From assembly GCA_036268025.1 (NCBI GenBank), contig DATAUY010000133.1, forward strand, positions 38,442-102,441: a DNA stretch of 64,000 nt, read 5' to 3'. Position 1 is the stretch's first letter; every line of letters begins with the position of its first letter. The notes beneath the pieces are model-generated. The model was not told the origin of the DNA and searched no databases. It saw only the letters and a program-made list of their open reading frames with translations. The translations under genes were made by a program, and so were the position numbers. This document shows positions 2,039 to 20,432 of the stretch, piece after piece. The DNA comes from Candidatus Sulfotelmatobacter sp. Its GTDB lineage: Bacteria > Acidobacteriota > Terriglobia > Terriglobales > Acidobacteriaceae.

Positions 2039-2044
2039 AATTCT

Positions 2045-4324: not shown

Positions 4325-4339
4325 AATGTGTTTGCGTAA

Positions 4340-4573
4340 CTAATCGTCGATTATGCAGCCGCGTCCTTGCCATCCCACTTGAATGACTTTTCCATCTTCT
4401 ACCAGGATAGGTACCGTGCGCTGTCCGCGTGCGATCTCGCGCATGCGTCCCCGCGCTGATGGATCGTTCTCGACGTCGTACTCCACAAAATCGCTGCGCT
4501 TCCACTCCAGCCACTCACGCATCTCGCCGGTATGAGGGCATCGCGCGGTCCCATAGAGTTCAAGCCTGGCCAC
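4340..4573 (-). CDS. Glutaredoxin/NrdH-like small thioredoxin-fold protein
   Basis: 77 aa with a CPHT redox motif at residues 12-15 and TVPILVEDGKV typical of the glutaredoxin fold. It overlaps the upstream SIS gene by 14 nt. Confidence 0.7.
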   Translation of the reverse strand: MARLELYGTARCPHTGEMREWLEWKRSDFVEYDVENDPSARGRMREIARGQRTVPILVEDGKVIQVGWQGRGCIIDD

Positions 4574-5774
4574 GTCTGAGCACCTCCAGCGACTCGCGAA
4601 TAACGTGGTAAATCGAAGCCTGTACTTCCTGAATGCGCGGAATATAGTCGCAGTTGACGACTACGGGAAAGTCGGCGAGGTTTTTGCGCTTGATTTCGCC
4701 GCCGTCATAGCCCAATAGAGCTACCGTCAAAAGCTTTCGCTTTCGAGCTTCCTCCAGCGCCATGATGATGTTGCGAGATCCGCCGCTCGTGGAAATACCA
4801 ATGGCGACATCCTCCGGACAGGCATGCGCGATCAACTGACGAAGGAAAATCGCATCCGTGCCAATATCGTTGGCAACGGCAGTGATATTGGCCGGTTCGA
4901 GGGAAAGAGAGATTGCGGGCACAGTTTCATATTCAGGCGGGGTAAGAACGCAGTCCATCGCGAAGTCGTTCGCATCTGTGGCAGAACCGCCGTTGCCGAA
5001 CAGGATAAGTTTGCCACCACACAAAAGTCGCTCGTGAATCGCGACTACTGTGTTGCTGATCTGCTCCGATTCTTCTCGCGCAACCTGCGCGCGCAGGTTA
5101 GCGTCATCATGGACCTTCATCAATATTGACGATGCCACTTCGGCGACCAGACTCGCGGTCCCCTGCTTTTCCTTGCCTAGAAAAGGATAGAGAAACTCCG
5201 ACTCCCCGACATCGTGGCCAAGTTCGCGATGCTCTAAGAAAACGTGAACCGTTTCCCACAGTGTGTGATACAGAACCTCGATCAATTCCTGATGGATAAA
5301 GGAATCTCGCGTCGCCGCTTCTACTGCATATGAGCCCTCGAAGCCCGGCAAGGCGAAGGTCATCGCTCCTTGTGTACGCGCCAATTGCAATGTGGCCCAA
5401 ACTTCCGGGTCGCCTTCCGGAGGGCCGAACCCCATCACGATATCTTCGGGGCGAAGAATGGCTTCGAGCCAAGGCCGCGGCAACACTGAGAGATCCAGTG
5501 CCGGCAGGGCGCGCTTTCCCACGATGACCGGATGAACAAACTCCACCGACACATGCTGCGCGTCGGTGACATAGGGGCCACGGCCAAACGCCAGCAAGCG
5601 GCCGCCGCGCAGAAAGCGCTCAGACATTTCACGGCAAGCTTCGGCAAGGCGTTGCGCCTCACGCGAGAAGAAGCGATCGAACACTTCGTTGCGTTCGAGC
5701 AGGCGCTCTTCGATCTGGCTTGCAAGGTTGCAGGTTGTAGCCATTTGATTTGTGTTTGCCGAATCCATCCTCAA
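4560..5774 (-). CDS. Tandem SIS-domain (GmhA/phosphosugar-isomerase-like) protein
   Basis: Two SIS-like halves: GGRLLAFGRGPYVTDAQHVSVEF and GGKLILFGNGGSATDANDFAMD...GISTSGGSRNII. Its start shares an ATGA overlap with the hypE stop. Confidence 0.75.
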   Translation of the reverse strand: MRMDSANTNQMATTCNLASQIEERLLERNEVFDRFFSREAQRLAEACREMSERFLRGGRLLAFGRGPYVTDAQHVSVEFVHPVIVGKRALPALDLSVLPRPWLEAILRPEDIVMGFGPPEGDPEVWATLQLARTQGAMTFALPGFEGSYAVEAATRDSFIHQELIEVLYHTLWETVHVFLEHRELGHDVGESEFLYPFLGKEKQGTASLVAEVASSILMKVHDDANLRAQVAREESEQISNTVVAIHERLLCGGKLILFGNGGSATDANDFAMDCVLTPPEYETVPAISLSLEPANITAVANDIGTDAIFLRQLIAHACPEDVAIGISTSGGSRNIIMALEEARKRKLLTVALLGYDGGEIKRKNLADFPVVVNCDYIPRIQEVQASIYHVIRESLEVLRRGQA

Positions 5775-6889
5775 CAGATTCTCGGCAAGGGATCGCCGAC
5801 AAGCATGTCTACGATTCGACTGCCGCCGTAAAGGGTTGTCACCAGCACACTGCCGGCCGGTTGTTCACGAACTTCGCCGATGACCTGCGCTTCGTCTCCA
5901 TCCGAAGCGAGGCTTAATGCATTGATCGCAGCATCGGCATATTCCGGTGAAACGACGGCGAGAAATTGGCCTTCATTCGCAATGTGCAGTGGATCAAGAC
6001 CCAGCAATTCGCAAGCGCCACGCACGCCGTCACGCACTGGAATCTGGTCCTCGAACAGGACCATTCCAAGCCCGCAATCTCGAGCTAGCTCGTTCAGCGA
6101 AGTAGCGGCGCCTCCGCGAGTGGGATCGCGCATCCAGCGAATGCCGGGGCCCGCTGCTTTCACGAGGGCCTCGACCAACGGCAACACCGAGCGCGTATCG
6201 GAATGGAGATCGGCTTCGAGATCTAACTCGCCGCGCGCCAGCAGGATGGTAATGCCGTGGTCGCCGATGGGCCCGGAAAGCAGAATTTTGTCGCCCACGC
6301 GAACCGAATGCGGATCGATACAAACGCCATGCAGCGGGCGTCCGATGCCGGTCGTTGTAATGTACATCTGATCTGCTTTGCCGTGTTCGACCACCTTGGT
6401 GTCGCCGCCTACGATGCGAACTCTCGCATTCCGCGCGGCCTTCGCCATGGCTCGTATTTCTGCATCGAGAATCGGCGTAGGCAGACCGGCTTCCAAGACA
6501 AATGTGACGACGAGTGCTTCCGCCTTCGCTCCTGAAACTGCGAGGTCATTTACGGTTCCGTTGATTGCAAGTTCACCTATGGATCCCCCGGGAAAGCTCA
6601 GCGGCTTGACGACGAAACTGTCGGTGGTGATAGCAACCTGCGTCCCATTAATATCGACGTGCGCCGCATCCGCAAGCGGGCCGATTTCTGCGCCGTACAG
6701 CAATGGAGCAAAAAGGCCCTCGACGAGCCGGCGGCTGGCCTTTCCGCCCGCGCCGTGAGCCATTTCAATCTGAGGATCGCGGAACCTCGTTGCGGGCTCT
6801 CGCAGAGGATCGATGGTTGCGGTCAGGCGATCGACAGCAGCGTTCCCTGCGCTGCTTTGCGGTGTTCGTAGTTGTAATATGCGGCGCAT
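5771..6889 (-). CDS. hypE: Hydrogenase maturation carbamoyl dehydratase HypE
   Basis: MAHGAGGKASRRLVEGLF N-terminal motif, AIR-synthase-like body, C-terminal PRIC. The longest ORF begins at 7063. ATG 6889 is preceded by GGAAGGA, so it is preferred. ATG 6763 is an alternative. Confidence 0.9.
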   Translation of the reverse strand: MRRILQLRTPQSSAGNAAVDRLTATIDPLREPATRFRDPQIEMAHGAGGKASRRLVEGLFAPLLYGAEIGPLADAAHVDINGTQVAITTDSFVVKPLSFPGGSIGELAINGTVNDLAVSGAKAEALVVTFVLEAGLPTPILDAEIRAMAKAARNARVRIVGGDTKVVEHGKADQMYITTTGIGRPLHGVCIDPHSVRVGDKILLSGPIGDHGITILLARGELDLEADLHSDTRSVLPLVEALVKAAGPGIRWMRDPTRGGAATSLNELARDCGLGMVLFEDQIPVRDGVRGACELLGLDPLHIANEGQFLAVVSPEYADAAINALSLASDGDEAQVIGEVREQPAGSVLVTTLYGGSRIVDMLVGDPLPRIC

Positions 6890-7953
6890 GATCCTTCCGA
6901 TGACACCATGAGCGCGCCGATTGGATGCTCCGGCGTACACTCGCGGCCAAAAAGTTTGCACTGGTGCGGCTTCAACACGCCCTTGAGCACTTCCCCACAT
7001 TGCGCGGCCTTTGGGTCGGTGACTCGAATGCCCGGAACTTCGAAGCGCTGCTCCGCATCCCATTCGGCATATCGGTCATTGATCCGAAGGGCCGACTGCG
7101 AGATGAAGCCGAGTCCCCTCCACTCAAAATAAGGACGAAGCTGAAAGACCTCAGCCATGGCTTTCAACGCCGCACGGTTGCCTTCCCAGGGAACTACGCG
7201 CTTGTACTGGTTTTCAACTTTGGCCTCACCCGCCTTAAGCTGGCGCAAAAGCATAACGATCGATTGCAGCATATCGAGAGGCTCAAAACCGGAAACGACA
7301 ATCGGCTTGCGCTCGTTCTGCGCGATCCATTCATAAGGACGGCATCCGATGACGGTTGAAACGTGACCGGGCCCGATAAACGCATCGAGTCGCATGTCGG
7401 GGGAATCGAGGATTGCACGAATAGCAGGGACGATCGTGACGTGATTGCAGAAAACCGAAAAGTTCCGGATGCCCTCAGCCTTGGCCCGCATCATTGTGAG
7501 CGCAGTGGATGGAGCGGTGGTCTCAAAGCCGATCGCGAAGAACATTACATGTTTTTCGGGATTGAGCCGCGCCAACTTCAGAGCATCCGAGGGAGAATAA
7601 ACGATGCGCACATCCATGCCCTGCGCTTTGCGCTCGAGCGGGCTGCCTTGTGTTCCCGGCACCCGCATCATGTCGCCAAAGGCGGCGAAAATGACATTCC
7701 CCTGCTGAGCGATCGCCAGCCCGTCGTCAATCCTTCCCATGGGAAGAACGCAGACCGGACAGCCGGGACCGTGAATTAATTCGATGTTTTCCGGAAGAAT
7801 ATCTTTCAGGCCGAAGCGGTAGATAGCATGTGTATGTCCTCCACACACTTCCATCATGCGGTAGTGCCGCTCGGTTCCGGCGAGGCGGCGGATCTCTTCC
7901 GCCGTCTTCGAAATCAGTTCGGGCTCCCGGAATTCATCTACGAATCTCATCAC
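6823..7953 (-). CDS. hypD: Hydrogenase maturation protein HypD
   Basis: CGGHTHAI, GPGCPVCV and GFETTAP motifs; 376 aa; located between hypC and hypE. Confidence 0.95.
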   Translation of the reverse strand: MMRFVDEFREPELISKTAEEIRRLAGTERHYRMMEVCGGHTHAIYRFGLKDILPENIELIHGPGCPVCVLPMGRIDDGLAIAQQGNVIFAAFGDMMRVPGTQGSPLERKAQGMDVRIVYSPSDALKLARLNPEKHVMFFAIGFETTAPSTALTMMRAKAEGIRNFSVFCNHVTIVPAIRAILDSPDMRLDAFIGPGHVSTVIGCRPYEWIAQNERKPIVVSGFEPLDMLQSIVMLLRQLKAGEAKVENQYKRVVPWEGNRAALKAMAEVFQLRPYFEWRGLGFISQSALRINDRYAEWDAEQRFEVPGIRVTDPKAAQCGEVLKGVLKPHQCKLFGRECTPEHPIGALMVSSEGSCAAYYNYEHRKAAQGTLLSIA

Positions 7954-7975
7954 TCCTCACTTGATCTGGGCCACA

Positions 7976-8254
7976 TCAATTCAAGTCCTCCAGCCCATAT
8001 CCCTGGACTTCCTGCATCGCGCCGTCAATTTCACCTAGCATTCGGAGCGTATTCATTTGATCCGCGGCATCCTGTTCGCTGATCTTGCTCATGGCGAAAC
8101 CCACATGAACCAGCACCCAGTCGCCGGGAACAGGCTTGTCGTGCTGCAATAAACCCAGATCAATCTTGCGCCGCACGCCGACAACCTCGACGAGCGCAGA
8201 ATCACGGTTCTCGGAAGAAATCTCGACGATCTTTCCTGGTATCGCCAAACACAT
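7976..8254 (-). CDS. hypC: Hydrogenase assembly chaperone HypC
   Basis: MCLAIPGKIVEI. HypC family proteins require Cys directly after the initiator Met, so the internal ATG at 8254 is used rather than the ORF start at 8290. Confidence 0.9.
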   Translation of the reverse strand: MCLAIPGKIVEISSENRDSALVEVVGVRRKIDLGLLQHDKPVPGDWVLVHVGFAMSKISEQDAADQMNTLRMLGEIDGAMQEVQGYGLEDLN

Positions 8255-8323
8255 GCGGCATCCTCCTGCAACATCATCATTCAGGTTCATTTTTCATTCG
8301 CTCGTCCCGAAACCGCCAGCCAT

Positions 8324-8965
8324 TCACTCTTGTTTGCGGGCGGTAATATCAAAAGATAGCTTGAGTTCGTCCTTGAGCTTTATTGCTCCTCCAACAGCGG
8401 AGACAGGTGGAATTTGATAGTCACTCTGCCGGATGGAGAAATCACCGGTCGCACGTAAAGTATCGCCATTCAGACGAACACGCGCGGACACCGGTTGGCT
8501 GCGTGTAACTCCGTGCAGAGTCAATTCGCCGTTCAATGCCGCCCAATACTGTCCTTCTCCGGCCTTGCTGGCAGAAATGCGGCCACATTCGTAGACAATT
8601 TCGGGAAACGTATCGGACTCCAGCGCTTCCTCGTGCATCCTGCGGTCCATTTCTGCGCGGTCTTTCTTGCTAATGTCATCAATCACGCCCATTGAAGCCG
8701 CCTGAAATACGAGTCGCAGTGAGCTTTGTTCAATCGTCTCGGGATGCAGCGAGATCGTGCCCTCAAAATCGGAGATCGCAATCGTCGGATTGTGGCCCAA
8801 AGCAGAAAGCAGCCCGGCAGCGAAAGCCCGCACGGTAAACTTACTGCCCTTGGATACAACAATGTAGTCAACTGTTGCGTTCTCGGTTTTTATCGTCATT
8901 TCCGGTGCGTAATGCACAGGATCCCTTCCGTCATTTGCCAAGCCTCGCTTACCAAGGCCGAACAA
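8324..8965 (-). CDS. YceI-like (polyisoprenoid-binding fold) protein without signal peptide
   Basis: FTVRAF...GHNPTIAI, KKDRAEMDRRMHEEALESDTFPEIVYE, GELTLHGVTRSQPV and IRQSDYQI match the YceI domain pattern. Start may instead be ATG 8899. Confidence 0.7.
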   Translation of the reverse strand: MFGLGKRGLANDGRDPVHYAPEMTIKTENATVDYIVVSKGSKFTVRAFAAGLLSALGHNPTIAISDFEGTISLHPETIEQSSLRLVFQAASMGVIDDISKKDRAEMDRRMHEEALESDTFPEIVYECGRISASKAGEGQYWAALNGELTLHGVTRSQPVSARVRLNGDTLRATGDFSIRQSDYQIPPVSAVGGAIKLKDELKLSFDITARKQE

Positions 8966-8966
8966 C

Positions 8967-9542
8967 TTACTCCGATTTGCGGGCCACCGCGTAAAAGGAA
9001 AATTTCAATTCATCCTGCAGCTTCAAAGAGACTCCCGCGATGGACGCGATGCGTATGTTGTAATCGCTTTGCAACAAAGTAAATGCTCCGTATGCTCGCG
9101 CGCTCTCGACACCTAAGGCAACCTGAGCCACCAACTCCTGCTCATTCGAAACACCATGAAGGCTCAGCATTCCGCGCACGGAGAGCCGGTACAGATCGTC
9201 TCTCAGCTTTTCCGCCTTGACCTCCGAACTCTCGTAAATCACCTCGGGATACTGGGTCGTTTCCAGGACTTCCTTGTTCATCACTCTGTGCAGTTCCCGG
9301 CGGTCCGAGTCTCGCATCTCATCCAGCACCTCGAGCGAAGCTGGGTTGACATGAATGCTGAGCAGCGCGTTTTCCAATCCATCGGGCGCAAGCTCTACGG
9401 TACCTGTCCACTCGCGAATCGCAATCTTTGGACTGTGCGCCACTGACGAAATCAGTCCATTGGCAAAAGCCTGAACCGTAAACTGGCTCTTTTGCGCATC
9501 CACAACGTAACGCGCATTCGCGCTTGCAGCACCCGTCGCCAT
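8967..9542 (-). CDS. YceI-like protein without signal peptide (tandem paralog)
   Basis: QFTVQAFANGLISSVAHSPKIAI, DSDRRELHRVMNKEVLETTQYPEVIYE, GMLSLHGVSNEQ and LLQSDYNI. Same architecture as the downstream neighbour. Confidence 0.7.
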   Translation of the reverse strand: MATGAASANARYVVDAQKSQFTVQAFANGLISSVAHSPKIAIREWTGTVELAPDGLENALLSIHVNPASLEVLDEMRDSDRRELHRVMNKEVLETTQYPEVIYESSEVKAEKLRDDLYRLSVRGMLSLHGVSNEQELVAQVALGVESARAYGAFTLLQSDYNIRIASIAGVSLKLQDELKFSFYAVARKSE

Positions 9543-9619
9543 CGAAGTCCACCTCCGCGATCATGCTATATCGATTGATCGCTGGCCCAAGGGGCCTCGG
9601 GTTACGAGTTCGGTTTTCG

Positions 9620-9826
9620 TTACATGGATCTCAATTTCAAGTACCGGTCGAGATCCGGCAATGCGGCTTGGGCCAAATCTCCAACCCCAAGACGGCCCAA
9701 ATACTTTCGCGCAACCGGATTGGAAAGTATCAAGCCCGCCCCGAAAACGACCAGTGCGATTCCGCCCAGCATGTAGAGAGTGTCTTTATCGGTTGAGCTT
9801 CCATTGCTCTTCTCTTCCCTTGACAC
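9620..9826 (-). CDS. Small single-pass membrane protein, unknown function
   Basis: 68-aa ORF with one TM helix (LGGIALVVFGAGLIL), co-directional within the hydrogenase gene train. Confidence 0.4.
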   Translation of the reverse strand: MSREEKSNGSSTDKDTLYMLGGIALVVFGAGLILSNPVARKYLGRLGVGDLAQAALPDLDRYLKLRSM

Positions 9827-9838
9827 GGCAGTCTCCTT

Positions 9839-10684
9839 TCATTCCTGAAAATTCACGCCTGAATCCGGTCGATTTCCGTTGAGAATTTCGTTAACTTTCG
9901 ACATCACCAGTTTGACTGCCTGATCTACGGCCGCTTCCACGGGCCGACTGAGTCCCATCGCGCCCTCCTCGCCTCCGAGCGTTTGGGGCTCACAGCCGAC
10001 TATAAACACACTCTTTACCTCGATATTCATTGCACGCGCCATGCGAAGCACGACCATCGGATTCATCACATGACCGTCTGCCATGCTTTGTGGAGCAGCG
10101 TCCAACTCTTTCAGGTCTGGTTCAACAACATAGAGTGTGCCCGGCGCCTCGCCGCGCGGGCAGGCGTCGATCAAAATAGCGGTTTCGTAGCCATTCAGCA
10201 GCGCATAGGCAAGATCGAAGCCACGAATTCCGAAGTCCGCCACCCGCACCCCGGCCGGTAGGTCAAATAGCGCGACACGGCGAACCACTTCCACGCCGAA
10301 CCCGTCGTCACCCAGAAAAATATTTCCGATGCCGGCGACGAGAATTGTCGGCTCCTCTCTTGTTACGATTTCCGGAACTCCATCGGATGATAGCGGCTCG
10401 ACTTCGTTGACATTGAAGAAGAAACGATGCCCCGGCTGGCGAAGCAGTCCCATGTCTCTTCCTGGATCGCTGTCGAGAACCACGCACACATGCTGCTTCC
10501 CTTCATAGTCTTGCTCAATACATTCGACCGTTGCAGTTTGGCCTTTGAGGGCTATATCCATCACGTCGCCCCCGGGGCGAGGATGCAGCCGGACGCGGCT
10601 TCCAGTTCTGACTTCGACGCCCGCAATCTCCAGGTGGTCGACCGGAGTCTTCTCTTCAAGAAGCTGCCACTCCCATTCGTTCAT
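9839..10684 (-). CDS. [NiFe] hydrogenase maturation endopeptidase (HyaD/HupD family) with an N-terminal extension of roughly 110 aa
   Basis: ILVAGIGNIFLGDDGFGVEVV, DACP.GEAPG and HVMNP...GCEP motifs occupy the C-terminal 170 aa. The N-terminal 110 aa has no motif I recognise. ATGA overlap with the next gene. Confidence 0.85.
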   Translation of the reverse strand: MNEWEWQLLEEKTPVDHLEIAGVEVRTGSRVRLHPRPGGDVMDIALKGQTATVECIEQDYEGKQHVCVVLDSDPGRDMGLLRQPGHRFFFNVNEVEPLSSDGVPEIVTREEPTILVAGIGNIFLGDDGFGVEVVRRVALFDLPAGVRVADFGIRGFDLAYALLNGYETAILIDACPRGEAPGTLYVVEPDLKELDAAPQSMADGHVMNPMVVLRMARAMNIEVKSVFIVGCEPQTLGGEEGAMGLSRPVEAAVDQAVKLVMSKVNEILNGNRPDSGVNFQE

Positions 10685-11742
10685 CGAGCCTCCTTGAGGG
10701 GCCGCATTCCGCGCAGAACTCCGTGCAGCTTCATGAACTGCTCCGCCGGCATAGATTCCGTACGCTCGAGCATTTCGCGCGCGCGCTCATCAGACTGGCT
10801 CATCTCCCGCTTCTCCTCGTCCGTCAGCGTCATGATACGCAGCGAGAGAATCTCGTCTATCTCAGTGCCGTCAAACAGGTCTCCCGCGCTTTCTGGGGCG
10901 ATCTGCGGATAGTCATAGAGAATGATGGGGGAAGAAAGAAGAGTGTCGTGCTGGCCTTCCTCACCAACGAGCACCGGCCACGTGCCGATGTTTTTGCAGT
11001 CCGCGGCGAACACAGTCGTCTCCTCGCTGGGCGCAAGCAAGGAAACGAAGCTTCCGTCGAGCATGCCCAAAATAGTATGAGTCGAGATCAAAGCACTTAA
11101 CAGGGCTTCGTCTCGACTCGCCTGACGCCCCGATTCGAAGTCCGTAGTGTTACGAACAACAACTCTAACGAGGAACATGTTGTCATTCTTCGCCACCGCC
11201 GAAATCTCGACTTCGCCGGAAAGAACATCGGTTTTGCGGAGGAGAATGCCAGCGATTGCGGCATCGGGCTCCCGGAGCGGATCGACTCGCTCTTCCGCCG
11301 GGAAGGAAAATTCTTGTCGCATCGGTCTTTGCGCGAGAGCTTTCACGTTGCAAGCGGCAACGACGACTTCCCGCTCAATCGCCTCTTGCCACCGTTGATA
11401 GAGGTGGCCATTTACCAAGAGACTCTCCACTGAGTAGAACTCAGGAGGTCCTTCCAAAGGTAATTCGCTCGACGACTTGCTCAGTTTCCCTACCGTACGG
11501 TTCACCAACTGGAGGAATCGCACTCGCACTTCCAATCCAGTCAGCGCATCGCCTTGTACCAAACACTCGGTCTGCATACTCCACGCTTCGGTGCCGTTTT
11601 GCGCTTCGCTGTAAGCTCGAGGACAAAGCACTCCGAAATTCCAGCGCTGCTGATTTTTCACAGACGATGGACGATAGGGATAGAGCATGTATCCCTCGTA
11701 GAGCACGGCTCTCGCGATCTTGTCTACCGTTGCGAGATTCAT
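10681..11742 (-). CDS. Conserved hypothetical protein of group 1h hydrogenase loci
   Basis: Start chosen at ATG 11742 (MNLATVDKIARAVLYEGYMLYPYR), which forms an ATGA overlap with the upstream stop. The longest ORF would begin at 11823. No catalytic motif recognised. Confidence 0.6.
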   Translation of the reverse strand: MNLATVDKIARAVLYEGYMLYPYRPSSVKNQQRWNFGVLCPRAYSEAQNGTEAWSMQTECLVQGDALTGLEVRVRFLQLVNRTVGKLSKSSSELPLEGPPEFYSVESLLVNGHLYQRWQEAIEREVVVAACNVKALAQRPMRQEFSFPAEERVDPLREPDAAIAGILLRKTDVLSGEVEISAVAKNDNMFLVRVVVRNTTDFESGRQASRDEALLSALISTHTILGMLDGSFVSLLAPSEETTVFAADCKNIGTWPVLVGEEGQHDTLLSSPIILYDYPQIAPESAGDLFDGTEIDEILSLRIMTLTDEEKREMSQSDERAREMLERTESMPAEQFMKLHGVLRGMRPLKEAR

Positions 11743-12437
11743 TGCAAGGCTTTCTCCTCGCTCTGGCGGTCTCGAATTGGCTGTTCCTCGGCAGGCAATA
11801 TGCTCTCCAGCGCCTGTTCCCACGTTGGAATCCCGCGCTGAACTTTATATCGATAAAACCGATCAAAAGCATCCTTGTGCAGACAAAGCCAGGCACTATT
11901 GGGATAGTGCGCTTCCATCATGTCTCGCCAGACTCGGATTGGGAGTCTGAACCGGCTCTCCTTGTCCCAGGAGATAGGAGCGACTTGCAGCAAACCCTCC
12001 GAGTTCGGATGAAAAACGGTGCCGCTGAATTGCAGACAAAGGGGAACTTCTCCCCCGGCAAGACCGTCGAAATACTTGGTGGCAGCCACATTGAAATCGA
12101 AGCTGCACGGCACAGGAAGATCAACTACCGTTGTTCCGGTAAACGAGGGAATGATCACGTTGACGTGCGTCCACAAAAGACTGCGCAGAGTCTGCCCCCA
12201 TCGGCTTGGCTCGCCGAAAAGATCGAGCAATCGGGCCTGGTCTTCCGGCGTATATCCTCGGCGAGTAACTTCAAGCAGAATCTGGCAGCGCAGCGCGATT
12301 GTGTGAATTGCTTCATCCGGATTTGCACAGTCCATCCGAAGCTTAAATGCAAGGAAAGGCGCCGCCGCTCCGGCGACGACCTCAACACCATCGACTTGGA
12401 AGTTCAGGTCAGGCATGAAATTACTGTTTTTCTGCAA
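11739..12437 (-). CDS. Conserved hypothetical protein of group 1h hydrogenase loci
   Basis: 232-aa ORF, translationally coupled on both sides (17-nt and 4-nt overlaps). No motif recognised. Confidence 0.6.
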   Translation of the reverse strand: MQKNSNFMPDLNFQVDGVEVVAGAAAPFLAFKLRMDCANPDEAIHTIALRCQILLEVTRRGYTPEDQARLLDLFGEPSRWGQTLRSLLWTHVNVIIPSFTGTTVVDLPVPCSFDFNVAATKYFDGLAGGEVPLCLQFSGTVFHPNSEGLLQVAPISWDKESRFRLPIRVWRDMMEAHYPNSAWLCLHKDAFDRFYRYKVQRGIPTWEQALESILPAEEQPIRDRQSEEKALQ

Positions 12438-13092
12438 ACGCGTCGGTAGTTGCGACCGCCGTTTCGATCGAACGCGCTTTCAATCCCGTAAAGAACTCTT
12501 CCAGCCCCCGCCACACTTCCGTTCCTCCGGAAAGGCCCTTCCAGTGCATGCGAATCAAACCGACTAGTCTGTAACATTCATCAATGGGAAGCAGGTAGTA
12601 CTGAAGAGCGGAATATCCTCGCGCGTCTCCCAAGCGATTGACCAGGAGCCCTTCCACATCTGATTCCATCTCGTGCAGCACCGGGTTGCGCGCCACAATA
12701 TCGTTCCAGGATTCGACAGCCAGCAAAGATTCGATCGCGCCCGCAGGACTGGGATAGAGAACGACCACTCGGTTCTCCATGCTGCTTTTGTAGAAGAAGG
12801 CCATGTTGATGGGAATCATCAGGCTGTTCCATTCATTCTCGTCGAGAAGGAACCCGCGAAGAATGCGGACCTGCCGGGGAACGCGTTTGAACTTCACTCC
12901 CTGGCCGCCGAACAGAATCGCGCAGGCGTCGCAGGCGCATAGCAGCTTGCGTGCCGCCAGTTCGAGGAGGTGGGCGTGATCCGAGCGCAACTCCAGACTG
13001 CATAGTTCGCAACGCTCGACATTGCGCTCGCGGCGCGCAAACTGACGGAGAGCCCCAAAACCCGAGGATCCTGCAAATTGTCCTGCACTCAT
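12421..13092 (-). CDS. Cys-rich conserved hypothetical protein of group 1h hydrogenase loci
   Basis: CELCSLEL...LLCACDACAILF gives a five-Cys cluster near the N-terminus. 223 aa, co-directional. Confidence 0.6.
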   Translation of the reverse strand: MSAGQFAGSSGFGALRQFARRERNVERCELCSLELRSDHAHLLELAARKLLCACDACAILFGGQGVKFKRVPRQVRILRGFLLDENEWNSLMIPINMAFFYKSSMENRVVVLYPSPAGAIESLLAVESWNDIVARNPVLHEMESDVEGLLVNRLGDARGYSALQYYLLPIDECYRLVGLIRMHWKGLSGGTEVWRGLEEFFTGLKARSIETAVATTDAFAEKQ

Positions 13093-13128
13093 CGCAACAC
13101 TTCCAAAATAACCAGACGGCTTCGATTT

Positions 13129-13734
13129 CTAGTCCGTACGCCGCTCCGCCACCAGGGAATTACCCTCTGTCAACGATGGAGCAGCGCCCACCATCAGCTT
13201 TTCCAGACCGACAAATCCGGAAGCAGGCTTCTCTTCGAATCCCTCAACGATTAAAGATGCCAGATCCGGAGCGGCGTCATACATCGTCTCTTCCAGCGTG
13301 GCGTGAAGGGTTTTTGCCGTAGAGCCGCATGTGTGTGAGCCGGTTTCGACACGCAGCCGGACTACACCTTCGGTCACCGCGAGCAGCTGTACTTCGCAGC
13401 CGTGTTTGCGCAATTGCGGGCGCACACGCTCCACGGCTCGCGTCACGCGGCTTTCGATATCTTCTGGATGTAGCCCATAGAGCACCAGCACACTGCTCAG
13501 AAGGGGATCATGCCCCAATCGATCAATAATGGCCATCCCTGGTTCCCCGGCTTCGGAAATGATCTCGAGCGCCTTCTCCAGCGCGGAACCGTGCAACTCC
13601 ATCAGCGATTGAACGAGGTTTTTCGTGGACGCACGAATTGCGGGATCGGCAATCGACTCGATCTCCTGCACGAGTCCGCCGATCCGCTGGATGTCATGTT
13701 GAACCTCGCCGTTGCTCACCAGGTTCCTTTCCAA
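13129..13734 (-). CDS. NifU/Nfu C-terminal-domain-like protein
   Basis: C-terminal half (IESRVTRAVERVRPQLRKHGCEVQLLAVTEGVVRLRVETGSHTCGST...TLEETMYDAAPDL) resembles the Nfu-type scaffold domain. It lies directly downstream of hhyL. Confidence 0.65.
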   Translation of the reverse strand: MERNLVSNGEVQHDIQRIGGLVQEIESIADPAIRASTKNLVQSLMELHGSALEKALEIISEAGEPGMAIIDRLGHDPLLSSVLVLYGLHPEDIESRVTRAVERVRPQLRKHGCEVQLLAVTEGVVRLRVETGSHTCGSTAKTLHATLEETMYDAAPDLASLIVEGFEEKPASGFVGLEKLMVGAAPSLTEGNSLVAERRTD

Positions 13735-13845: not shown

Positions 13846-15642
13846 TCAGGGTTGTAGACCAAACATCGGAGAATGATGCGTCTCCAGCACCTTTCCATTC
13901 CCCAGATACATGTGTACGCCGCACGGCAGGCACGGATCGAAACTTCGCACGGCACGCATGATGTCAATCCCTTTGAATTTCTCGGGGCCGTTCTCTTCAA
14001 AAATTGGTGTGTTCTGAACTGCATCCTCGTAAGGACCCGGCGTGCCATAAATGTCGCGGGGATTGGCATTCCAAGGCGTCGGTGGATATGGATGGTAGTT
14101 GGCGATCTTGCCGCCCTTGATAACGACGTGGTGCGAGAGCACGCCGCGTACGGCCTCGTGGAATCCACAGCCGATCGCCTCCTCCGGCACCTTGAAATCC
14201 GTCCACGTCTTGGTGTGACCGGCGTGCACTTCCGCCAGCGCCTTTTCCATGAAGTGCAAGGCGCAGCAGGCCGCATACACCTGGAAGTAGGTGCGCGCGC
14301 GGTCGCGCTCGATGGCATTGCTCCACTTGGGGATTTTCCACTCGAATTCGACCTCGGGCATTGAGGTGGTCTTCGGCAGATACATCTTCACGCTGCTCCC
14401 GGTAGCCTTGATGTAGCCGATGTCGACCAAACCAGCGAGGGCCGTGGACCAGAGGCGCGCGATGGGGCCGCCCCCGGTGTCCATAGCGAGATGGTCGCCG
14501 GTTCGCTTGTCAAGCCAGCGCGGCGACATCACCCATGTATACTTGCCGCCAAAATCGCGCTTCTGTGGACGGGGAATCGTCGTTTGATTCCACGGATGAT
14601 TCCTGTCAACCGGATTCCCGAGCGGATCAGTCTTGACGAACGTCTGTGAATTCTTCCAATCGTCGTAGTACGAACTGCCGAGCAGAATGCGGATGTTCAG
14701 GTTGATATCCACTAGATCGGTGGTGACGAGTTTCCCATCCACTACGATGCCGGGAGTCACGAACATTGCCTTGCCCCACTCCGACATATTCTTGTAGGTG
14801 TAGTCGCAGACATCCGGATTATTAAATGATCCCCAGCAGGCCAGCAGCACTCGGCGGCGGCCGACTTCTTCATAACCGGGCAGCGCCTGATAAAAGAAAT
14901 CGAACAGATCGTCGTGCAAGGGCACGACCTTCTTCATAAATTCCACATACTTCATCAGGCGAACCAGATAGTCCGTGAAGAGCTGAACGGTTGGCACAGT
15001 ACCCACGCCACCCGGATACAGCGTGGAAGGATGAACGTGGCGGCCCTCCATCAGGCAGAACATTTCGCGCGTCATGCGGCTCATCACCAGAGCTTCCCGG
15101 TAAAAAGCACCTGTGAACGGATTAAGCGCGGTCATGATGTCCGCAATCGTGCGGTAGCCATGCACATTCGAGTGCGGTGCAGCGGTTGACTGGGCCTTGG
15201 CCCAGACTTTCGGATTCGTCTCCTTGACCATTTGCTCGCAGAAGTCCACCCCGACCAGATTGTCCTGAAAAATATTATGGTCGAACATGTATTCGGCGGC
15301 TTCGCCGAGATTGACGATCCACTCGGCGATGGGCGGAGGCTTTATTCCGAATGCCATGTTCTGCGCGTAGGTGGCGCAGGTCGCGTGGTTGTCCCCGCAG
15401 ATCCCGCAGATGCGGCTGGTAATGAAGTGAGCATCGCGCGGATCTTTGCCTTTCATGAAGATGCTGTACCCGCGAAAGATGGATGAAGTGCTGTGGCACT
15501 CGACTACGTGGCGATTCTCAAAATCAATCTTGGTAAAAATTCCGAGGCTGCCCACGATGCGGGTGATCGGGTCCCAGTTCATTTCCACCAGATTCCTCGA
15601 TTGGCTGGGAACATCTTTGGTCGGTGCGGTAATCGTGCTCAT
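13846..15642 (-). CDS. hhyL: [NiFe] hydrogenase large subunit, group 1h/5 (high-affinity, O2-insensitive type)
   Basis: L1 motif TSRICGICGDNH near the N-terminus and L2 motif SFDPCLPCGVHM near the C-terminus, the diagnostic group 1h signatures as I recall them. 598 aa. Confidence 0.95.
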   Translation of the reverse strand: MSTITAPTKDVPSQSRNLVEMNWDPITRIVGSLGIFTKIDFENRHVVECHSTSSIFRGYSIFMKGKDPRDAHFITSRICGICGDNHATCATYAQNMAFGIKPPPIAEWIVNLGEAAEYMFDHNIFQDNLVGVDFCEQMVKETNPKVWAKAQSTAAPHSNVHGYRTIADIMTALNPFTGAFYREALVMSRMTREMFCLMEGRHVHPSTLYPGGVGTVPTVQLFTDYLVRLMKYVEFMKKVVPLHDDLFDFFYQALPGYEEVGRRRVLLACWGSFNNPDVCDYTYKNMSEWGKAMFVTPGIVVDGKLVTTDLVDINLNIRILLGSSYYDDWKNSQTFVKTDPLGNPVDRNHPWNQTTIPRPQKRDFGGKYTWVMSPRWLDKRTGDHLAMDTGGGPIARLWSTALAGLVDIGYIKATGSSVKMYLPKTTSMPEVEFEWKIPKWSNAIERDRARTYFQVYAACCALHFMEKALAEVHAGHTKTWTDFKVPEEAIGCGFHEAVRGVLSHHVVIKGGKIANYHPYPPTPWNANPRDIYGTPGPYEDAVQNTPIFEENGPEKFKGIDIMRAVRSFDPCLPCGVHMYLGNGKVLETHHSPMFGLQP

Positions 15643-15686: not shown

Positions 15687-16775
15687 TTAGTAAGATCGTG
15701 GATGATAACCGGTGGTCAGTTCTGTACGTGGGTGGCGCCACTTCGGCTCTTTGTTGACAGTGGATTGAGTCATCGAGCGTAGTGCCCGAATGGCGCGCCC
15801 ATACGCGCCTACCGCCGTGCTTGAGAGTTTTCCTCCAGGCGGTTCGTCCATAAAAGGCATGAATTTGTCGGGGAAGCCGGGCATGGTGCACCCGATGCAG
15901 ATACCACCTACGTTAGGACAGCCACCTATCCCTGCCATCCACCCGCGCTTGGGAACATTGCAGTTGACGACCGGGCCCCAGCACCCCAGCTTCACGATGC
16001 ACTTCGGCGAGCCATAAACTTCGGCGAAGTCGCCCTGCTCGTAGTAACCAGCCCGATCGCAGCCCTCGTGGACGGTCTTGCCGAACAACCAGGTAGGTCG
16101 AAGCTGATCGTCGAGCGGAATCATAGGCGCGAGTCCGGCTACCTGATAGAGGAGATAGAGCACCGTCTCCATGAAGTTGTCAGGCTGCACAGGGCATCCG
16201 GGAACATTGACGATGGGCAGTCCGGCTTTCGAGCGCCAATCCCACCCAAGATAATCAGCGAGCCCCATGCAACCCGTTGGATTGCCTTCCATGGCGTGGA
16301 TGCCGCCATAGGTGGCGCAGGTACCGGCACCTATAATCGCGAGAGCCTTTGGAGCCAAGCGGTCGATCCACTCGTTCGTGGTAATGGGCTGATTGGTTTT
16401 GGGATCGGTGCCCAGCGCGGCCCAGTAGCCTTCCTTCTTTATTTTTTCGTTCGGTATCGACCCTTCCACCACCAGCACGAATGGTTCGAGTTCACCTTTT
16501 TCTGCCATATACCAGTACTTCATGAAGTCGTCTCCGACTTCATAGGCCAGCACAGGATTGTGCAGATGCACTTTCGGAAGTCCGGGGATAGCTCCCAGCA
16601 AGACGTCTTCGATGCTGGGCTGCGTCGCAGCCGTGACCGACACTGAGTCTCCGTCACAGCCGAGCCCCGCCGTTATCCAAAGAATATGCACCTCGGGAAC
16701 TGGCGATGGTTTTTGCGTGACCCGACCGTACGGAACTGTTTCCGCTGGCATACTGGAGTCTCCTCTCGCGCTCAC
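15687..16775 (-). CDS. hhyS: [NiFe] hydrogenase small subunit, group 1h/5
   Basis: GLGCDGDS, i.e. an Asp where other groups have the second Cys of CxxC, as reported for the group 1h proximal cluster. Also GTCATYGGIHA, VPGCPVQPDN and GGCPNVGGICIGCTMPGFPD. No twin-arginine signal. Confidence 0.95.
   Translation of the reverse strand: MSARGDSSMPAETVPYGRVTQKPSPVPEVHILWITAGLGCDGDSVSVTAATQPSIEDVLLGAIPGLPKVHLHNPVLAYEVGDDFMKYWYMAEKGELEPFVLVVEGSIPNEKIKKEGYWAALGTDPKTNQPITTNEWIDRLAPKALAIIGAGTCATYGGIHAMEGNPTGCMGLADYLGWDWRSKAGLPIVNVPGCPVQPDNFMETVLYLLYQVAGLAPMIPLDDQLRPTWLFGKTVHEGCDRAGYYEQGDFAEVYGSPKCIVKLGCWGPVVNCNVPKRGWMAGIGGCPNVGGICIGCTMPGFPDKFMPFMDEPPGGKLSSTAVGAYGRAIRALRSMTQSTVNKEPKWRHPRTELTTGYHPRSY
15735..16694 (-). 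repeat. Paralogous copy A of a 960-nt hhyS core (partner 19437-20396)
   Basis: 320 codons align without gaps to the second copy. Off-frame ORFs in both copies even translate to the same peptides (MNLSGKPGMVHPMQIPPTLGQPPIP at 15790 and 19561; SSMLGCVAAV at 16558 and 20239), which shows nucleotide-level conservation. Confidence 0.85.
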
Positions 16776-17051
16776 CGTGCTCGCTGTAACGGGGTTGGTT
16801 GCCGAATATCTCGCTGTGGGATGCTGTGCAAAAAATCCTAAAGTCTGGCTTCGCGGAGTTAGCCGGCCCGCTCTTAGAATGGAGCTGGTGTAAGTAGAAT
16901 CAACAATTTGCTTAGTGCTTTACAAGCAGGAGTGCCACGTTTTGCCTGGCATGGAAACCACCTTAGGAATGGTCAGGGATTCCCTTATGCTTCGAGGGTT
17001 TTAGCGAATGCAAGTAAACAAGGTAATAAGCGCGATTGGCGGTGCTTCGGA

Positions 17052-17741
17052 TCAACTCGCCTTCTCTTGCATGTTCCATCGAATGGCATGCTGCACAAGT
17101 TCGCGAGCGCTGCGCAGCGATAATTTCTCCTTGATGTGCGCCTGGTAAGATTCCACGGTTTTCACGCTCAGGTGTAACGCCTCTGCGATCTGGCGAGTCC
17201 CATGGCCCTCGCCAATCAGGCGGAACACTTCTAGTTCGCGGTCGCTGAGATCCGCAATTGAAGAACTTCGCAGCGTTCCGGGGCCGGTGATGTAATGCTT
17301 CAGCATCCTGTTAGCAATGTTGTCGCTCACATAAATCTCGCCGCCCAGAATGCGGCGAATTGCCACCAGGACCCGCTCAGCCGCTTCCTGTTTCATGATG
17401 TAGCCATTTGCTCCCGCGCGCAGCGCGCGTTCCGCATAGATACCCTCATCGTGCATAGAGAGAATCAAGACGGGCAGAGAGGGATGACTCGTTCGAACGC
17501 TTTTCAGCAAGTCGAGGCCATCAGGGCCATTCAGCGATATATCTACGATGAGAAAGTCCGGCCGGTTCATGGTGAGCATGTGAATCGCGGTAGTTGCCTC
17601 CTGCGCTTCCCCGCACACCATCAGGTCGGACTCACGGTTGATGAGCAGAGCCAAACCCTGGCGAACAATCGGATGATCATCCACTACAAGTATTTTTTTC
17701 TTTGTTGCCGACGGACTTTGTGCTCTCAAGGCAGTAGTCAT
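17052..17741 (-). CDS. NarL/FixJ(LuxR)-family response regulator
   Basis: Receiver domain (ILVVDDHPIVRQGL...LIVDISLNGPDG...) plus a C-terminal LuxR HTH (LSDRELEVFRLIGEGHGTRQIAEALHLSVKTVESY). ATGA overlap with the kinase stop. Confidence 0.9.
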   Translation of the reverse strand: MTTALRAQSPSATKKKILVVDDHPIVRQGLALLINRESDLMVCGEAQEATTAIHMLTMNRPDFLIVDISLNGPDGLDLLKSVRTSHPSLPVLILSMHDEGIYAERALRAGANGYIMKQEAAERVLVAIRRILGGEIYVSDNIANRMLKHYITGPGTLRSSSIADLSDRELEVFRLIGEGHGTRQIAEALHLSVKTVESYQAHIKEKLSLRSARELVQHAIRWNMQEKAS

Positions 17742-19360
17742 GTTTCACTTCGGTCTTTCGATGCAGGCTGAGGTGGAACAGGAAAAGGACAAGTCACAGT
17801 TGTTCCACCGCTGTTGGTTCTTTGCACGTCGAGCGAACCGCCGACCATGCGGGCCCTGTAGTTCATGAGATGCAGGCCCATTCCTTTGTCCGTCAGCGGA
17901 ACAGTGGCGATTCCAGCGCCATCGTCCTGGATCGTAAGAAGTCCCTGCTGTTCGTCCGCAGCCAAACGAATGACGATGTGGCGTGCGTGACCGTGCTTGA
18001 TAGCGTTGTTCACCGCTTCGCGTGCAATGTAATAAAGATGAGTGGCGACCGTGTCGTCGTGAATCAACACGGGAGTAAAACACTCAAAGCGGCAATTCAC
18101 CGCGAACAGATCTTCTACCTCACCGGCCCATCCCTGCAAGGCAGACATTAGTCCTTGTGTTTCGGATACGACTGGCAGCAGTCCACGAGCCAGTTCCCGG
18201 GTTCTATTTATGGCCTCATTGACCAGGTGCACAATCTTGGCTGCGTCAGCCGCTTCGGGCAGCGACCTCTCGGCCAATCTTTGCTCCTGGACCTTGCTCA
18301 TAAAAGCGATGCCGGTCAGATGCTGGCCCAAGCCATCGTGCAGGTCCTGGCCAATTCGCCGTTGCTCGTGTGCGCTGACCTCCAGGATCGCCTTCTCCAG
18401 ATGCTTCTTCTCCGTGACGTCAATGCCGGTGGCAATGATGTAATTCGGCCTGCCATTGTCGCCCGGTAATACAGTGCTCGACCATGAGATCAACCGGCGA
18501 CTGCCATCTCGAGTGACCATATACGTTTCGTCGTCAATCGAAAGCCGATTTGCGCAGAGTTCGTCAAACACAGATCGAAAGCGGTCCACTTCCTCCGGCG
18601 CAATAAAAATTTCCCAGATCTTCTGCCCGCCAACTTCCGCCAGCGAATATCCGCTGGTTTGCTCACACGCGCGATTGAGACGGACGATCCGGCCTGCCGA
18701 ATCGAGAACGACGACCAGCGCAGCGACCGTGTGCAGGATCGCTGAAACTACATTGCGCTCTTCCTGCAACGCTTCTTCAGTGCGCTTCAGATCGGTGATG
18801 TCAAAGCCTACACCATGAATAAACCAGGGCTCGCCGTTCTCCTGGCGCACCATTTTGGCTTCGCAGTGAAACCACAGGACCCGGCCATCCTTTGAAACTA
18901 CTCGATAGGCGGAGCGCAGCGGATTGCCTGTCAGAAACATATCGGCCGCTTCGGTGCTCCAGCGCTGCTTGTCATCGGGATGAATGTGCCTGTACCAGCG
19001 AACCGGGTCCTCCAGCCATTCCTCCTGGGAGAACCCGAGCGCAGCCTCAATTTGCGGGCTTACGTAGGCTTCTCCGATTCCGCGGTCGAGATATGCCATG
19101 AAAACTACCGCGGGAATCTGTTCGACTAGAGCTCGATATCTTGCTTCGAGGTTCGGGAGTTGAGAGTTGTCGGGCCATTCCGCTTCACCCTGTTTCGGCG
19201 GATAGACGATTCGGCGCGCGCTGTTTGTGCTGTAGTGATGAAGCATGCCGGCGAGGTCCTGGAGAATCGCCTCTGCCTGCGAAGGAGTGGGATTGGGACT
19301 CAGGGACCCTGGATCATCGTGAAGGGGAGTATTCGCTTTGGGCCAGAACGACGAAACCAT
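17738..19360 (-). CDS. Soluble double-PAS sensor histidine kinase (HisKA_3/NarX-type core)
   Basis: No TM segment. Two PAS-like blocks, an H-box EQRRIGQDLHDGLGQHLTG, an N-box REAVNNAIKHGHA and G-boxes IQDDGAGI / GMGLHLMNYRA. Confidence 0.9.
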   Translation of the reverse strand: MVSSFWPKANTPLHDDPGSLSPNPTPSQAEAILQDLAGMLHHYSTNSARRIVYPPKQGEAEWPDNSQLPNLEARYRALVEQIPAVVFMAYLDRGIGEAYVSPQIEAALGFSQEEWLEDPVRWYRHIHPDDKQRWSTEAADMFLTGNPLRSAYRVVSKDGRVLWFHCEAKMVRQENGEPWFIHGVGFDITDLKRTEEALQEERNVVSAILHTVAALVVVLDSAGRIVRLNRACEQTSGYSLAEVGGQKIWEIFIAPEEVDRFRSVFDELCANRLSIDDETYMVTRDGSRRLISWSSTVLPGDNGRPNYIIATGIDVTEKKHLEKAILEVSAHEQRRIGQDLHDGLGQHLTGIAFMSKVQEQRLAERSLPEAADAAKIVHLVNEAINRTRELARGLLPVVSETQGLMSALQGWAGEVEDLFAVNCRFECFTPVLIHDDTVATHLYYIAREAVNNAIKHGHARHIVIRLAADEQQGLLTIQDDGAGIATVPLTDKGMGLHLMNYRARMVGGSLDVQRTNSGGTTVTCPFPVPPQPASKDRSET

Positions 19361-19394
19361 CTTTACTCCTGCAACGAACTGCCCAACGACAATT

Positions 19395-20432
19395 TCACAG
19401 GGCTGTGCTTGGATGCTGATTTGGCCGGGCCGGCTTCCGCCACCCCGGCTCTTTGTTCAGTGAGGCTTGAGTAAACCGGCGCAATGCATGAATGGCGCGG
19501 CCATACGTTTGAACGGCAGCGGAAGACAGCAGCGAGCCTGGAGGTTGATTCATAAAGGGCATGAACTTGTCAGGAAAGCCTGGCATGGTGCATCCAATGC
19601 AAATTCCGCCGACGTTGGGGCAACCGCCAATCCCGCCCATCCAGCCACGCTTTCCAACATTGCATTGGACCACCGGCCCCCAACATCCTAGCTTCACAAT
19701 GCAAAGCGGAGATCCGTATTCTTCGGCAAACTGCGCTTGCTCGTAAAAGCCACCGCGATCACAGCCTTCATGCACGGTATTACCGAAAATCCAGGTCGGC
19801 CGCAAGGCGTCATCCAGCGGGATCATGGGCGCTCGGCCTGATGCCATATAGAACAGATACAAGAGCGTCTCCATGAGATTATCCGGCTGAACCGGACAGC
19901 CGGGCACACAGACGATCGGAATCTGCGCCTTTGATTTCCATTCCCATCCCAGGTAGTCGGGAAGTCCCATGCACCCGGTAGGATTGCCCTCCATGGCGTG
20001 AATACCGCCATAAGTGGCACAAGTGCCCGCGGCTAGTACTGCCCACGCTTTGGGAGCGAGGCGGTCAATCCACTCACACGTGGTGATCGGTTGCCCGGTC
20101 TCGCGATCAGTCCCGAACGATGCCCAATATCCTTCCGTCTTGTTGTGTTCGTTTGGAATGGAACCTTCGATCACAAGAATGAAACTCTTCGTCTCGCCTT
20201 CGGCTGCGTGATGAAAGGGCTCGAGGAAATTATCGCCATTGGCCATGGCGAGAAAGGGATTGTGCAGGGTAACTTTCGGGATCCAGGGGATCTGGCCAAG
20301 AAGAACGTCTTCAATGCTCGGCTGCGTTGCGGCTGTCATTGCGATGGAATCGCCGTCACAGCCGAGGCCAGCTGTGATCCACAGCACATCGAGCTCGTTG
20401 ACCACACTCTGGCTCATGGCTGCGAGCGCCAC
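19395..20432 (-). CDS. Second, orphan group 1h [NiFe] hydrogenase small-subunit paralog
   Basis: About 75 percent identical to HhyS over 320 ungapped residues (hand alignment). It retains GLGCDGDS and all other FeS Cys motifs, has distinct N- and C-terminal tails, and has no adjacent large-subunit gene. Confidence 0.9.
   Translation of the reverse strand: MALAAMSQSVVNELDVLWITAGLGCDGDSIAMTAATQPSIEDVLLGQIPWIPKVTLHNPFLAMANGDNFLEPFHHAAEGETKSFILVIEGSIPNEHNKTEGYWASFGTDRETGQPITTCEWIDRLAPKAWAVLAAGTCATYGGIHAMEGNPTGCMGLPDYLGWEWKSKAQIPIVCVPGCPVQPDNLMETLLYLFYMASGRAPMIPLDDALRPTWIFGNTVHEGCDRGGFYEQAQFAEEYGSPLCIVKLGCWGPVVQCNVGKRGWMGGIGGCPNVGGICIGCTMPGFPDKFMPFMNQPPGSLLSSAAVQTYGRAIHALRRFTQASLNKEPGWRKPARPNQHPSTAL
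19437..20396 (-). repeat. Paralogous copy B of the 960-nt hhyS core (partner 15735-16694)
   Basis: See copy A. Same orientation, about 3.7 kb apart, bracketing the two-component genes. Confidence 0.85.

Follow-up and report, generated by a model that had tools for sequence, protein, structure and literature searches.

A hydrogenase small-subunit paralog clustered with a PAS kinase and a NarL-type regulator upstream of group 1h hydrogenase genes in Terriglobales: a candidate regulatory operon

The genes in front of hhySL and their conservation

Three minus-strand genes precede hhyS and hhyL, the genes of a group 1h [NiFe] hydrogenase that scavenges H2 from air, in a 64,000-nucleotide stretch of DNA from the soil acidobacterium Candidatus Sulfotelmatobacter sp. 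(contig DATAUY010000133.1, positions 38,442 to 102,441; the whole stretch is termed the window). The first (19395..20432, a 345-aa open reading frame, ORF) encodes an HhyS paralog with a group 1h small-subunit core (Pfam Oxidored_q6, 2.6e-22; NiFe_hyd_SSU_C, 3.8e-22), the second (17738..19360, 540 aa) a histidine kinase with two PAS domains (PAS_3, PAS/PAS_9, HisKA_3, and HATPase_c), and the third (17052..17741, 229 aa) a NarL/LuxR-type response regulator composed of a REC and a GerE helix-turn-helix (HTH) domain (Response_reg, 3.9e-27; GerE, 9.7e-16) and devoid of an AAA+ domain. We refer to them as S', K, and R, and to the canonical hhyS (15687..16775) and hhyL (13846..15642; NiFeSe_Hases, 1.5e-62), both also on the minus strand, as S and L. 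From their gene order, from the sequence of S', and from a palindrome found upstream of hhyS, these three genes probably encode a switch controlling the hydrogenase.

A 34-nt gap containing an AGGAG ribosome-binding site separates S' from K, K and R share a 4-nt ATGA overlap, and 276 nt lie between R and the annotated GTG start of hhyS. These frames, strands, and spacings had been described in a first-pass annotation of the window made by a model from the letters alone, and the sequence confirmed all of them. The longest-ORF rule probably put the start codons of hhyS and S' in the wrong place. For hhyS, the true start is almost certainly ATG 16751 (MPAETVPYGR...), because this N-terminus is kept in the orthologs and in HofK of R. 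eutropha, and the R-hhyS spacer is therefore ~300 nt long. For S', the true start may be ATG 20417, as many orthologs are 340 aa long. A tblastn search identified hhyL as the single [NiFe] large-subunit gene of the window, in line with the earlier statement that S' has none of its own, and no second NiFeSe_Hases gene was found in the window or in any of 84 loci. S' has no adjacent hhyL; the only copy sits behind canonical hhyS. An Rfam search of the window gave no match.

A scan of GTDB with one genome per species retrieved 594 relatives, of which we examined the best 80, all metagenome-assembled genomes of Terriglobia. These were picked by similarity to S', and genomes with hhySL but without S' lie outside the sample. 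The best 80 of the 594 belong to Acidobacteriaceae, Ca. Korobacteraceae/Sulfotelmatobacter, Terracidiphilus, Pseudacidobacterium, and Alloacidobacterium. The database sequences closest to S' are 80-89% identical to it, more than the HhyS of the same genome, and the contigs carrying two of them show the order S'-kinase-regulator-HhyS-HhyL-NifU-DUF5947-DUF6084-x-HycI according to precomputed Pfam labels. When we used the window proteins as tblastn queries, the order S'-K-R-S-L was identical in 72 out of the 73 species-level Terriglobales loci that extend for 6 kb or more on the downstream side, ruling out a one-off rearrangement. Synteny of the trio in relatives had been set beforehand as the test on which the first-pass proposal could fail, and it passed.

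K directly follows S' in 83 of the 84 loci, the remaining locus stopping 143 nt past S'. The S'-K gaps in the related loci are mostly below 60 nt, and the reading frames of K and R overlap or all but touch; judged from this spacing, which is kept in nearly all loci, cotranscription of the trio is plausible. The genes on the far side of S' differ from locus to locus, indicating that S' is the first gene of the conserved block.

Several observations on individual loci and records were made along the way. At the locus that departs from the common order (L084), R is followed by an ORF for an ArsR-like HTH protein (recognized from its translation), an AMP-binding/PP-binding/acyltransferase gene, and a PrpD-family gene. 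The contig of locus L032 (DATHMV010000003.1) bears the label Candidatus Aquilonibacter (phylum Vulcanimicrobiota), yet the complete cluster is on it, with proteins 72-95% identical to those of the window, and it is probably a mis-binned acidobacterial contig or the result of a recent transfer. The S' orthologs P0059, P0137, P0140, and P0174 are named 'hydrogenase expression protein HypE' in NCBI records, and this misnaming hides the module from keyword searches.

Sequence features of the small-subunit paralog

Our comparison of small subunits covered 73 sequences of S', 72 of HhyS, and HofK from the actinobacterial-type hydrogenase of R. eutropha (PDB 5AA5). Identity is 88% within S' (minimum 82%) and 91% within HhyS, and 73% between the two groups (maximum 78%; 75% over 326 residues for the pair of the window); HhyS is 78% identical to HofK, and S' 72%. 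The S' sequences form a clade apart from HhyS, with 24 columns fixed differently between the two, including W50, C175, and G260, and the orphan copy thus proved to be the separate conserved clade envisaged at first pass. This clade structure implies that the duplication is older than the sampled Terriglobales radiation and that S' is the derived copy. In comparison with HhyS and HofK, S' (72-75% identity) has the same domains and all iron-sulfur (FeS) ligands, including the proximal aspartate, but it lacks the terminal extensions, is altered in segment 43-64, and has an extra cysteine, Cys119.

All twelve ligands of the three FeS clusters are strictly conserved in S'. C25, C138, C179, C224, C244, C250, C257, C271, C278, and C281 are invariant in the 73 sequences, and the Cys-Asp proximal motif 'GCDGD' and the histidine of HEGC align identically to HofK; the claim that S' keeps every FeS-ligand motif, GCDGD among them, is thereby borne out. 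Furthermore, 205 core columns show no variation among the HhyS sequences and have the same residue in HofK, and 172 of them (84%) are unchanged in S'. The changes in S' are concentrated at residues 29-31, 43-64, 94-97, 158-175, and 195-200. The conservation of the core would permit S' to bind HhyL.

The dN/dS ratios, calculated by the Nei-Gojobori method, are 0.043 for S', 0.035 for HhyS, 0.036 for HhyL, 0.08 for R, 0.11 for K, and 0.09-0.19 for the accessory proteins. With dS close to its saturation level, these ratios are rough and dN is safer to compare; dN gives the same ranking (0.081 for S', 0.070 for HhyS, 0.060 for HhyL, and 0.236 for K). Purifying selection on S' is very strong, as strong as on HhyS and HhyL. 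A degenerating duplicate is ruled out by the dN/dS of S' together with its invariant cluster ligands.

HhyS, with both its N- and C-terminal extensions, aligns end to end with HofK (from 3 to 350 of 351; 1.3e-196), whereas the best PDB match of S', also HofK (5AA5_A, 6.5e-170), is aligned from 10 to 333 only. The near-invariant N-terminus of HhyS, ETVPYGRVTQKPSPV ('VPYGR.TQ'), is common to acidobacterial HhyS and betaproteobacterial HofK, and the C-terminus 'HPRxELTTGYHPRSY' ('WRH...LTTGY') is conserved from the HhyS of Acidobacteria to HofK. Both are lost in S', the termini of which are short, variable, and unconserved, leaving the core as the aligned part. The tails of S' had earlier been called divergent; they do differ, but the wording understated the case, in that HhyS tails are conserved and S' lost them. 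As judged from this alignment, S' is a core-only small subunit. A Tat motif was found in neither S' nor HhyS of the window.

Two cysteines are characteristic of S'. Cys119 is clade-specific and present in 72 of the 73 sequences. Cys175, present in 71 of the 73, is an asparagine in every HhyS and in HofK (IVCVPGCP vs IVNVPGCP) and stands four residues before the proximal-cluster ligand Cys179. These residues could alter the cluster environment or act as a thiol switch. Since both terminal extensions are lost and Cys119/Cys175 are fixed, S' is not a plain spare catalytic subunit.

The kinase, the regulator, and the palindrome upstream of hhyS

K consists of a short conserved N-terminal motif (residues 29-39), PAS-A (~76-200), PAS-B (~201-325), the HisKA_3 DHp domain with an intact H-box ('DLHDGLGQ'), and HATPase_c. 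It has no transmembrane segment, the only hydrophobic stretch (residues 204-222) being located inside the PAS-B core, and the Pfam assignments agree with its earlier description as a soluble double-PAS HisKA_3 kinase. Its PDB matches are the FixL PAS domain, the DesK transmitter, and the ATP-binding domains of DosT/DevS. Across 67 K orthologs, the mean majority frequency is 0.90 in PAS-A, 0.90 in DHp, and 0.66 in PAS-B. About one third of the orthologs are 650-710 aa long and carry an extra PAS domain (L009, L010, L012, L013, L016, L018, L019, and others; at ~11000-13100). PAS-B is thus the variable or duplicated part of K, and PAS-A stays highly conserved. Being as conserved as DHp, PAS-A is the best candidate for a conserved input or docking surface of K.

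R, which has the phospho-acceptor aspartate, displays the motifs 'VVDDHP' and 'LIVDISL', as read from the sequence, and matches VraR, NarL, EvgA, and DevR in the PDB. By its domain composition, the K-R pair belongs to the NarL/DosR class of two-component systems.

The spacer between R and hhyS contains a 17-bp palindrome of consensus ATCrGGGA-A-TCCCyGAT, a candidate operator whose copy in the window is CATAAGGGAATCCCTGAC (16972..16989, minus strand). The palindrome is followed after 52-54 bp by the block 'GAAAAAGTGGyGCTCCCGCTTGT' and, ~25 bp further, by the block 'TTGTTGATTCTA'; these promoter-proximal conserved blocks occupy 16894..16945 (minus strand) in the window, and their spacing is fixed between loci. 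They probably represent a further regulator site and the core promoter. By a two-motif criterion, this architecture is fixed in 64 of the 73 R-S spacers. We described the palindrome by a weight matrix of 21 columns (23.8 bits). It yields 149 matches of at least 14 bits in 85 loci (~1.6 Mb), 139 of which are in the R-S spacer. With a matrix made without the window, the window site (16970-16990) scores 22.1 bits and the next best site in the 64 kb 10.4 bits.

In six loci (L020, L031, L043, L056, L058, and L067), 1.2-2.1 kb are inserted between R and hhyS. Despite these insertions, the palindrome is found 160-430 bp upstream of hhyS, and in L020, L031, L056, and L058 both the palindrome and the promoter blocks are beside hhyS. 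Because the palindrome stays near hhyS when 1.2-2.1 kb are inserted after R, it belongs to the hhyS promoter. The obvious candidate for its binder is R, which would act as a dimeric GerE-type regulator and is encoded directly upstream.

Scanning the R-hhyS spacer for consensus sigma-70 promoters and terminators called none, and with no terminator-like site called, read-through from S'-K-R is possible. We rejected a sigma-54 promoter (TGGCAC-N5-CTTGT) in the spacer, as it lacks the -12 GC, its GG-to-GC distance is wrong by one position, and there is no AAA+ activator. Autoregulation through the same operator is not supported either: just 10 of the 149 matches of at least 14 bits are outside the R-S spacer, and these are mostly kilobases from S'. 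Between the palindrome and the putative promoter of the window (16920-16967), two similar A-rich/TCCC blocks, with consensus AAAAATAGTGnTTCCCA and GAAAAAGTGGnGCTCCCG, have the look of a direct repeat and may provide further half-sites for a regulator. A different element, GGGAAT(C/T)C abutting a TAGAAT -10-like hexamer, occurs ~80-155 nt before S' in L010, L013, L031, L039, L043, L047, L050, and L067, where it could serve some lineages as a half-site for autoregulation; the window has no such element upstream of S'.

Downstream of hhyL, a train of accessory and maturation genes (1014..13734, minus strand) encodes, in this order and by Pfam assignment, a NifU-like protein, DUF5947, DUF6084, an unnamed conserved protein, a HycI-type endopeptidase, two YceI, HypC, HypD, HypE, a SIS protein, HypF, HypA, and HypB. 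The longest HypE ORF (5771-7063) overlaps hypD (6823-7953) by ~240 nt; its true start is probably further downstream, since the AIRS domain only begins at residue 132.

Proposed role, alternatives, and related systems

The module was not undescribed, as the first-pass annotation had it. Giguere et al. (ISME J 2021; PMC8027828, SI-2), citing Greening et al. (PNAS 2015), noted an 'hhyS homolog' ~3600 bp upstream of hhySL and ~71% similar to hhyS in Acidobacteriaceae bacterium KBS 83 (G002DRAFT_03432-03434), Edaphobacter aggregans (Q363DRAFT_01014-01016), and Pyrinomonas methylaliphatogenes; our statement on occurrence outside Terriglobales rests on this published remark about Pyrinomonas. The spacing is the same in the window (3657 bp), where S' is 75% identical to hhyS. 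This earlier coverage amounts to a passing remark plus reverse transcription-quantitative PCR (PMC8027828), the clusters were drawn without the paralog by Eichorst et al. (2018), and we found no mechanistic work on the acidobacterial module in the literature. New here are the breadth of its occurrence, the clade definition, the loss of the tails, the extra cysteines, the pattern of PAS-A conservation, and the operator. According to the published transcript data (PMC8027828), the KBS 83 homolog rises from 128 copies per ng in exponential phase to 2153 in stationary phase (~13-fold up), and hhyL rises between the same phases by ~125-fold in KBS 83 and ~3.5-fold in E. aggregans. In neither strain could hhyS transcript be detected during exponential phase, when hhyL could be quantified (PMC8027828).

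We consider, with a probability of roughly 0.55, that the hhy cluster has in S'-K-R a regulatory operon dedicated to it, in which S' serves as the FeS input for K and R acts at the palindrome. S' would be a neofunctionalized small subunit that kept its three FeS clusters and core fold, shed its terminal extensions, and gained two conserved cysteines, and that became the redox-active input partner of the soluble K, docking most likely on PAS-A. K would then set the phosphorylation state of R, a dimer of which would bind the 17-bp palindrome upstream of hhyS and control the transcription of hhySL and the genes behind. The S'-K contact, the binding of R to the palindrome, and the direction of control are what we infer from gene order and sequence conservation. 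Control of the downstream hhy/hyp train by the trio had been proposed at first pass; the palindrome before hhyS fits such control by the adjacent NarL-type regulator, and the control itself is a prediction.

The version of this regulatory operon that we prefer, although tentatively, is that part of the HhyL pool pairs with S' and forms a non-respiratory sensor similar to a regulatory hydrogenase, whose H2-dependent reduction state would be read by K. Equally tentative is its corollary, that S' competes with HhyS for HhyL and that S'-HhyL senses H2 down to near-atmospheric levels and feeds no electrons to the respiratory chain. The reduction state of the FeS clusters in S'-HhyL, possibly via Cys119/Cys175, would gate K and then R at the palindromic operator. 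The simplest account of a constraint on S' equal to that on the catalytic subunits, and of its retention of most deeply invariant columns, would be that the HhyL interface is still in use. The loss of the tails fits an S'-HhyL complex cut off from the usual acceptor or oligomer, and the KBS 83 transcripts, with the homolog and hhyL present in exponential phase and hhyS undetectable, are compatible with S'-L pairing.

Several points weigh against the regulatory operon or this version of it. The homolog transcript of E. aggregans was undetected in both growth phases, although the strain induced both hhyS and hhyL and took up H2 (PMC8027828), which counts against any model needing S' for activation. 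Locus L084 (10001-20996), the sole exception among the 73, has S'-K-R without hhySL within 7 kb, and no operator palindrome was found in it; this could reflect either a lost link between module and hydrogenase cluster in that genome or a rearranged assembly. The palindrome could also be the site of another regulator. In a distance-matrix analysis of coevolution, the partial r was -0.07 for S'-L and 0.21 (weak) for S'-K, with the L-R value of 0.60 indicating that the method does not discriminate. The gain from sensing H2 is not obvious, the atmospheric concentration being nearly constant, and the loss of the tails might lower the binding of HhyL.

A first alternative, less probable than the pairing with HhyL but deserving consideration, is that S' works alone, without a large subunit, as an FeS-based redox or O2 sensor: its clusters, or a Cys119/Cys175 thiol switch, would track the redox pool and modulate K, thereby reporting the energy or redox state (starvation) rather than H2. 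The missing large-subunit gene, the loss of the catalytic-subunit tails, and the two clade-specific cysteines near the proximal cluster speak for it, as do the induction of hhy genes by carbon limitation rather than H2, the reported control of mycobacterial Hhy by the redox- and O2-sensing DosST/DosR, a pair of the same two-component class (PMC13098282), and, as weak evidence, the absence of S'-L distance coevolution. On the other hand, the constraint on S' (dN/dS 0.043) equals that on HhyS and HhyL, with 84% of the deep-invariant columns kept, and such constraint would hardly be expected of a protein whose very extensive subunit interface had fallen out of use. Moreover, we know of no stand-alone [NiFe] small subunit.

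It is somewhat more doubtful that S' is an alternative catalytic small subunit, forming with HhyL an isoenzyme of different acceptor or potential, while K and R sense something else via their PAS domains and merely share the operon. The fully conserved FeS ligands and core and the very low dN/dS would be expected of such a subunit, and the ~13-fold rise of the KBS 83 transcript in stationary phase parallels that of hhyL. However, S' is kept in front of the kinase and regulator genes in 72 of 73 loci. A subunit of this kind would normally be duplicated with hhyL or placed beside it. It also lacks the extensions of all group 1h catalytic small subunits examined, and E. aggregans oxidized H2 with its homolog transcript undetected. 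Least probable is a decoy or assembly factor whose binding partner is HhyL, immature or free, or else the kinase, and which feeds the large-subunit supply back on transcription post-translationally, with no sensing of H2 or redox state: the core interface columns kept in S', its operon shared with the regulators, and the unlike hhyL and hhyS transcripts in exponential phase would agree with this, but the strict conservation of all twelve cluster ligands would be superfluous for a pure decoy, and we are aware of no precedent.

As a regulatory operon, S'-K-R can be viewed as a variation on the idea of the regulatory hydrogenase and would resemble group 2b in function. The two-component H2-sensing logic of that group has been described (PMC13098282 and HydDB). 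HoxBC-HoxJ-HoxA of Cupriavidus necator and HupUV-HupT-HupR of Rhodobacter capsulatus likewise comprise an FeS subunit, a soluble PAS kinase, and a response regulator beside uptake-hydrogenase genes, and the group 2b small subunit, like S', has no Tat signal. In contrast to the S' module, group 2b possesses a dedicated sensor large subunit (HoxC/HupV). S' derives from group 1h (HofK-like), and the HoxB/HupU side from group 2b; R is of the NarL/GerE type, whereas HoxA/HupR are NtrC-type (AAA+) activators of sigma-54 promoters; and K carries a HisKA_3 DHp, which sets it apart from the group 2b kinases, both being soluble and equipped with PAS domains. HoxB carries a C-terminal extension, whereas S' lost its C-terminal tail.

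The second related system is mycobacterial. DosS/DosT-DosR (DevST-DevR) likewise pairs a HisKA_3 kinase with a REC-GerE regulator, and the DosR box is a palindrome with GGGA/TCCC half-sites as well, with a spacing that differs from that of the hhy palindrome. The input of DosS/DosT is through haem-GAF domains, whereas that of K is proposed to involve two PAS domains and a separate FeS protein, and DosR governs a global dormancy regulon, whereas S'-K-R is a local module dedicated to hhy. NCBIfam gave no equivalog at cutoff for S', K, or R, and the signalling pair is accordingly not orthologous to DosST/DosR. DosST/DosR modulates Hhy in Mycobacterium smegmatis (PMC13098282), and NarL-type control of a group 1h enzyme therefore has a precedent.

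A mycobacterial study of 2026 names the sensory hydrogenase of C. necator and DosST/DosR as the known controls and leaves open the induction of Hhy by starvation (PMC13098282). The starvation switch-on of group 1h enzymes is thus an openly stated gap, for which S'-K-R is a concrete and widely conserved candidate. Its cultured hosts (KBS 83 and E. aggregans), defined operator sequence, and few signature residues make the question directly testable. The module would mean that two-component systems have twice, by independent routes, taken over a hydrogenase subunit as their input. If S' does borrow HhyL as proposed, this would be the first case of a high-affinity group 1h hydrogenase with a dedicated regulator that responds to H2; the regulator would have arisen separately from the group 2b systems and would include a feedback from the abundance of the enzyme.

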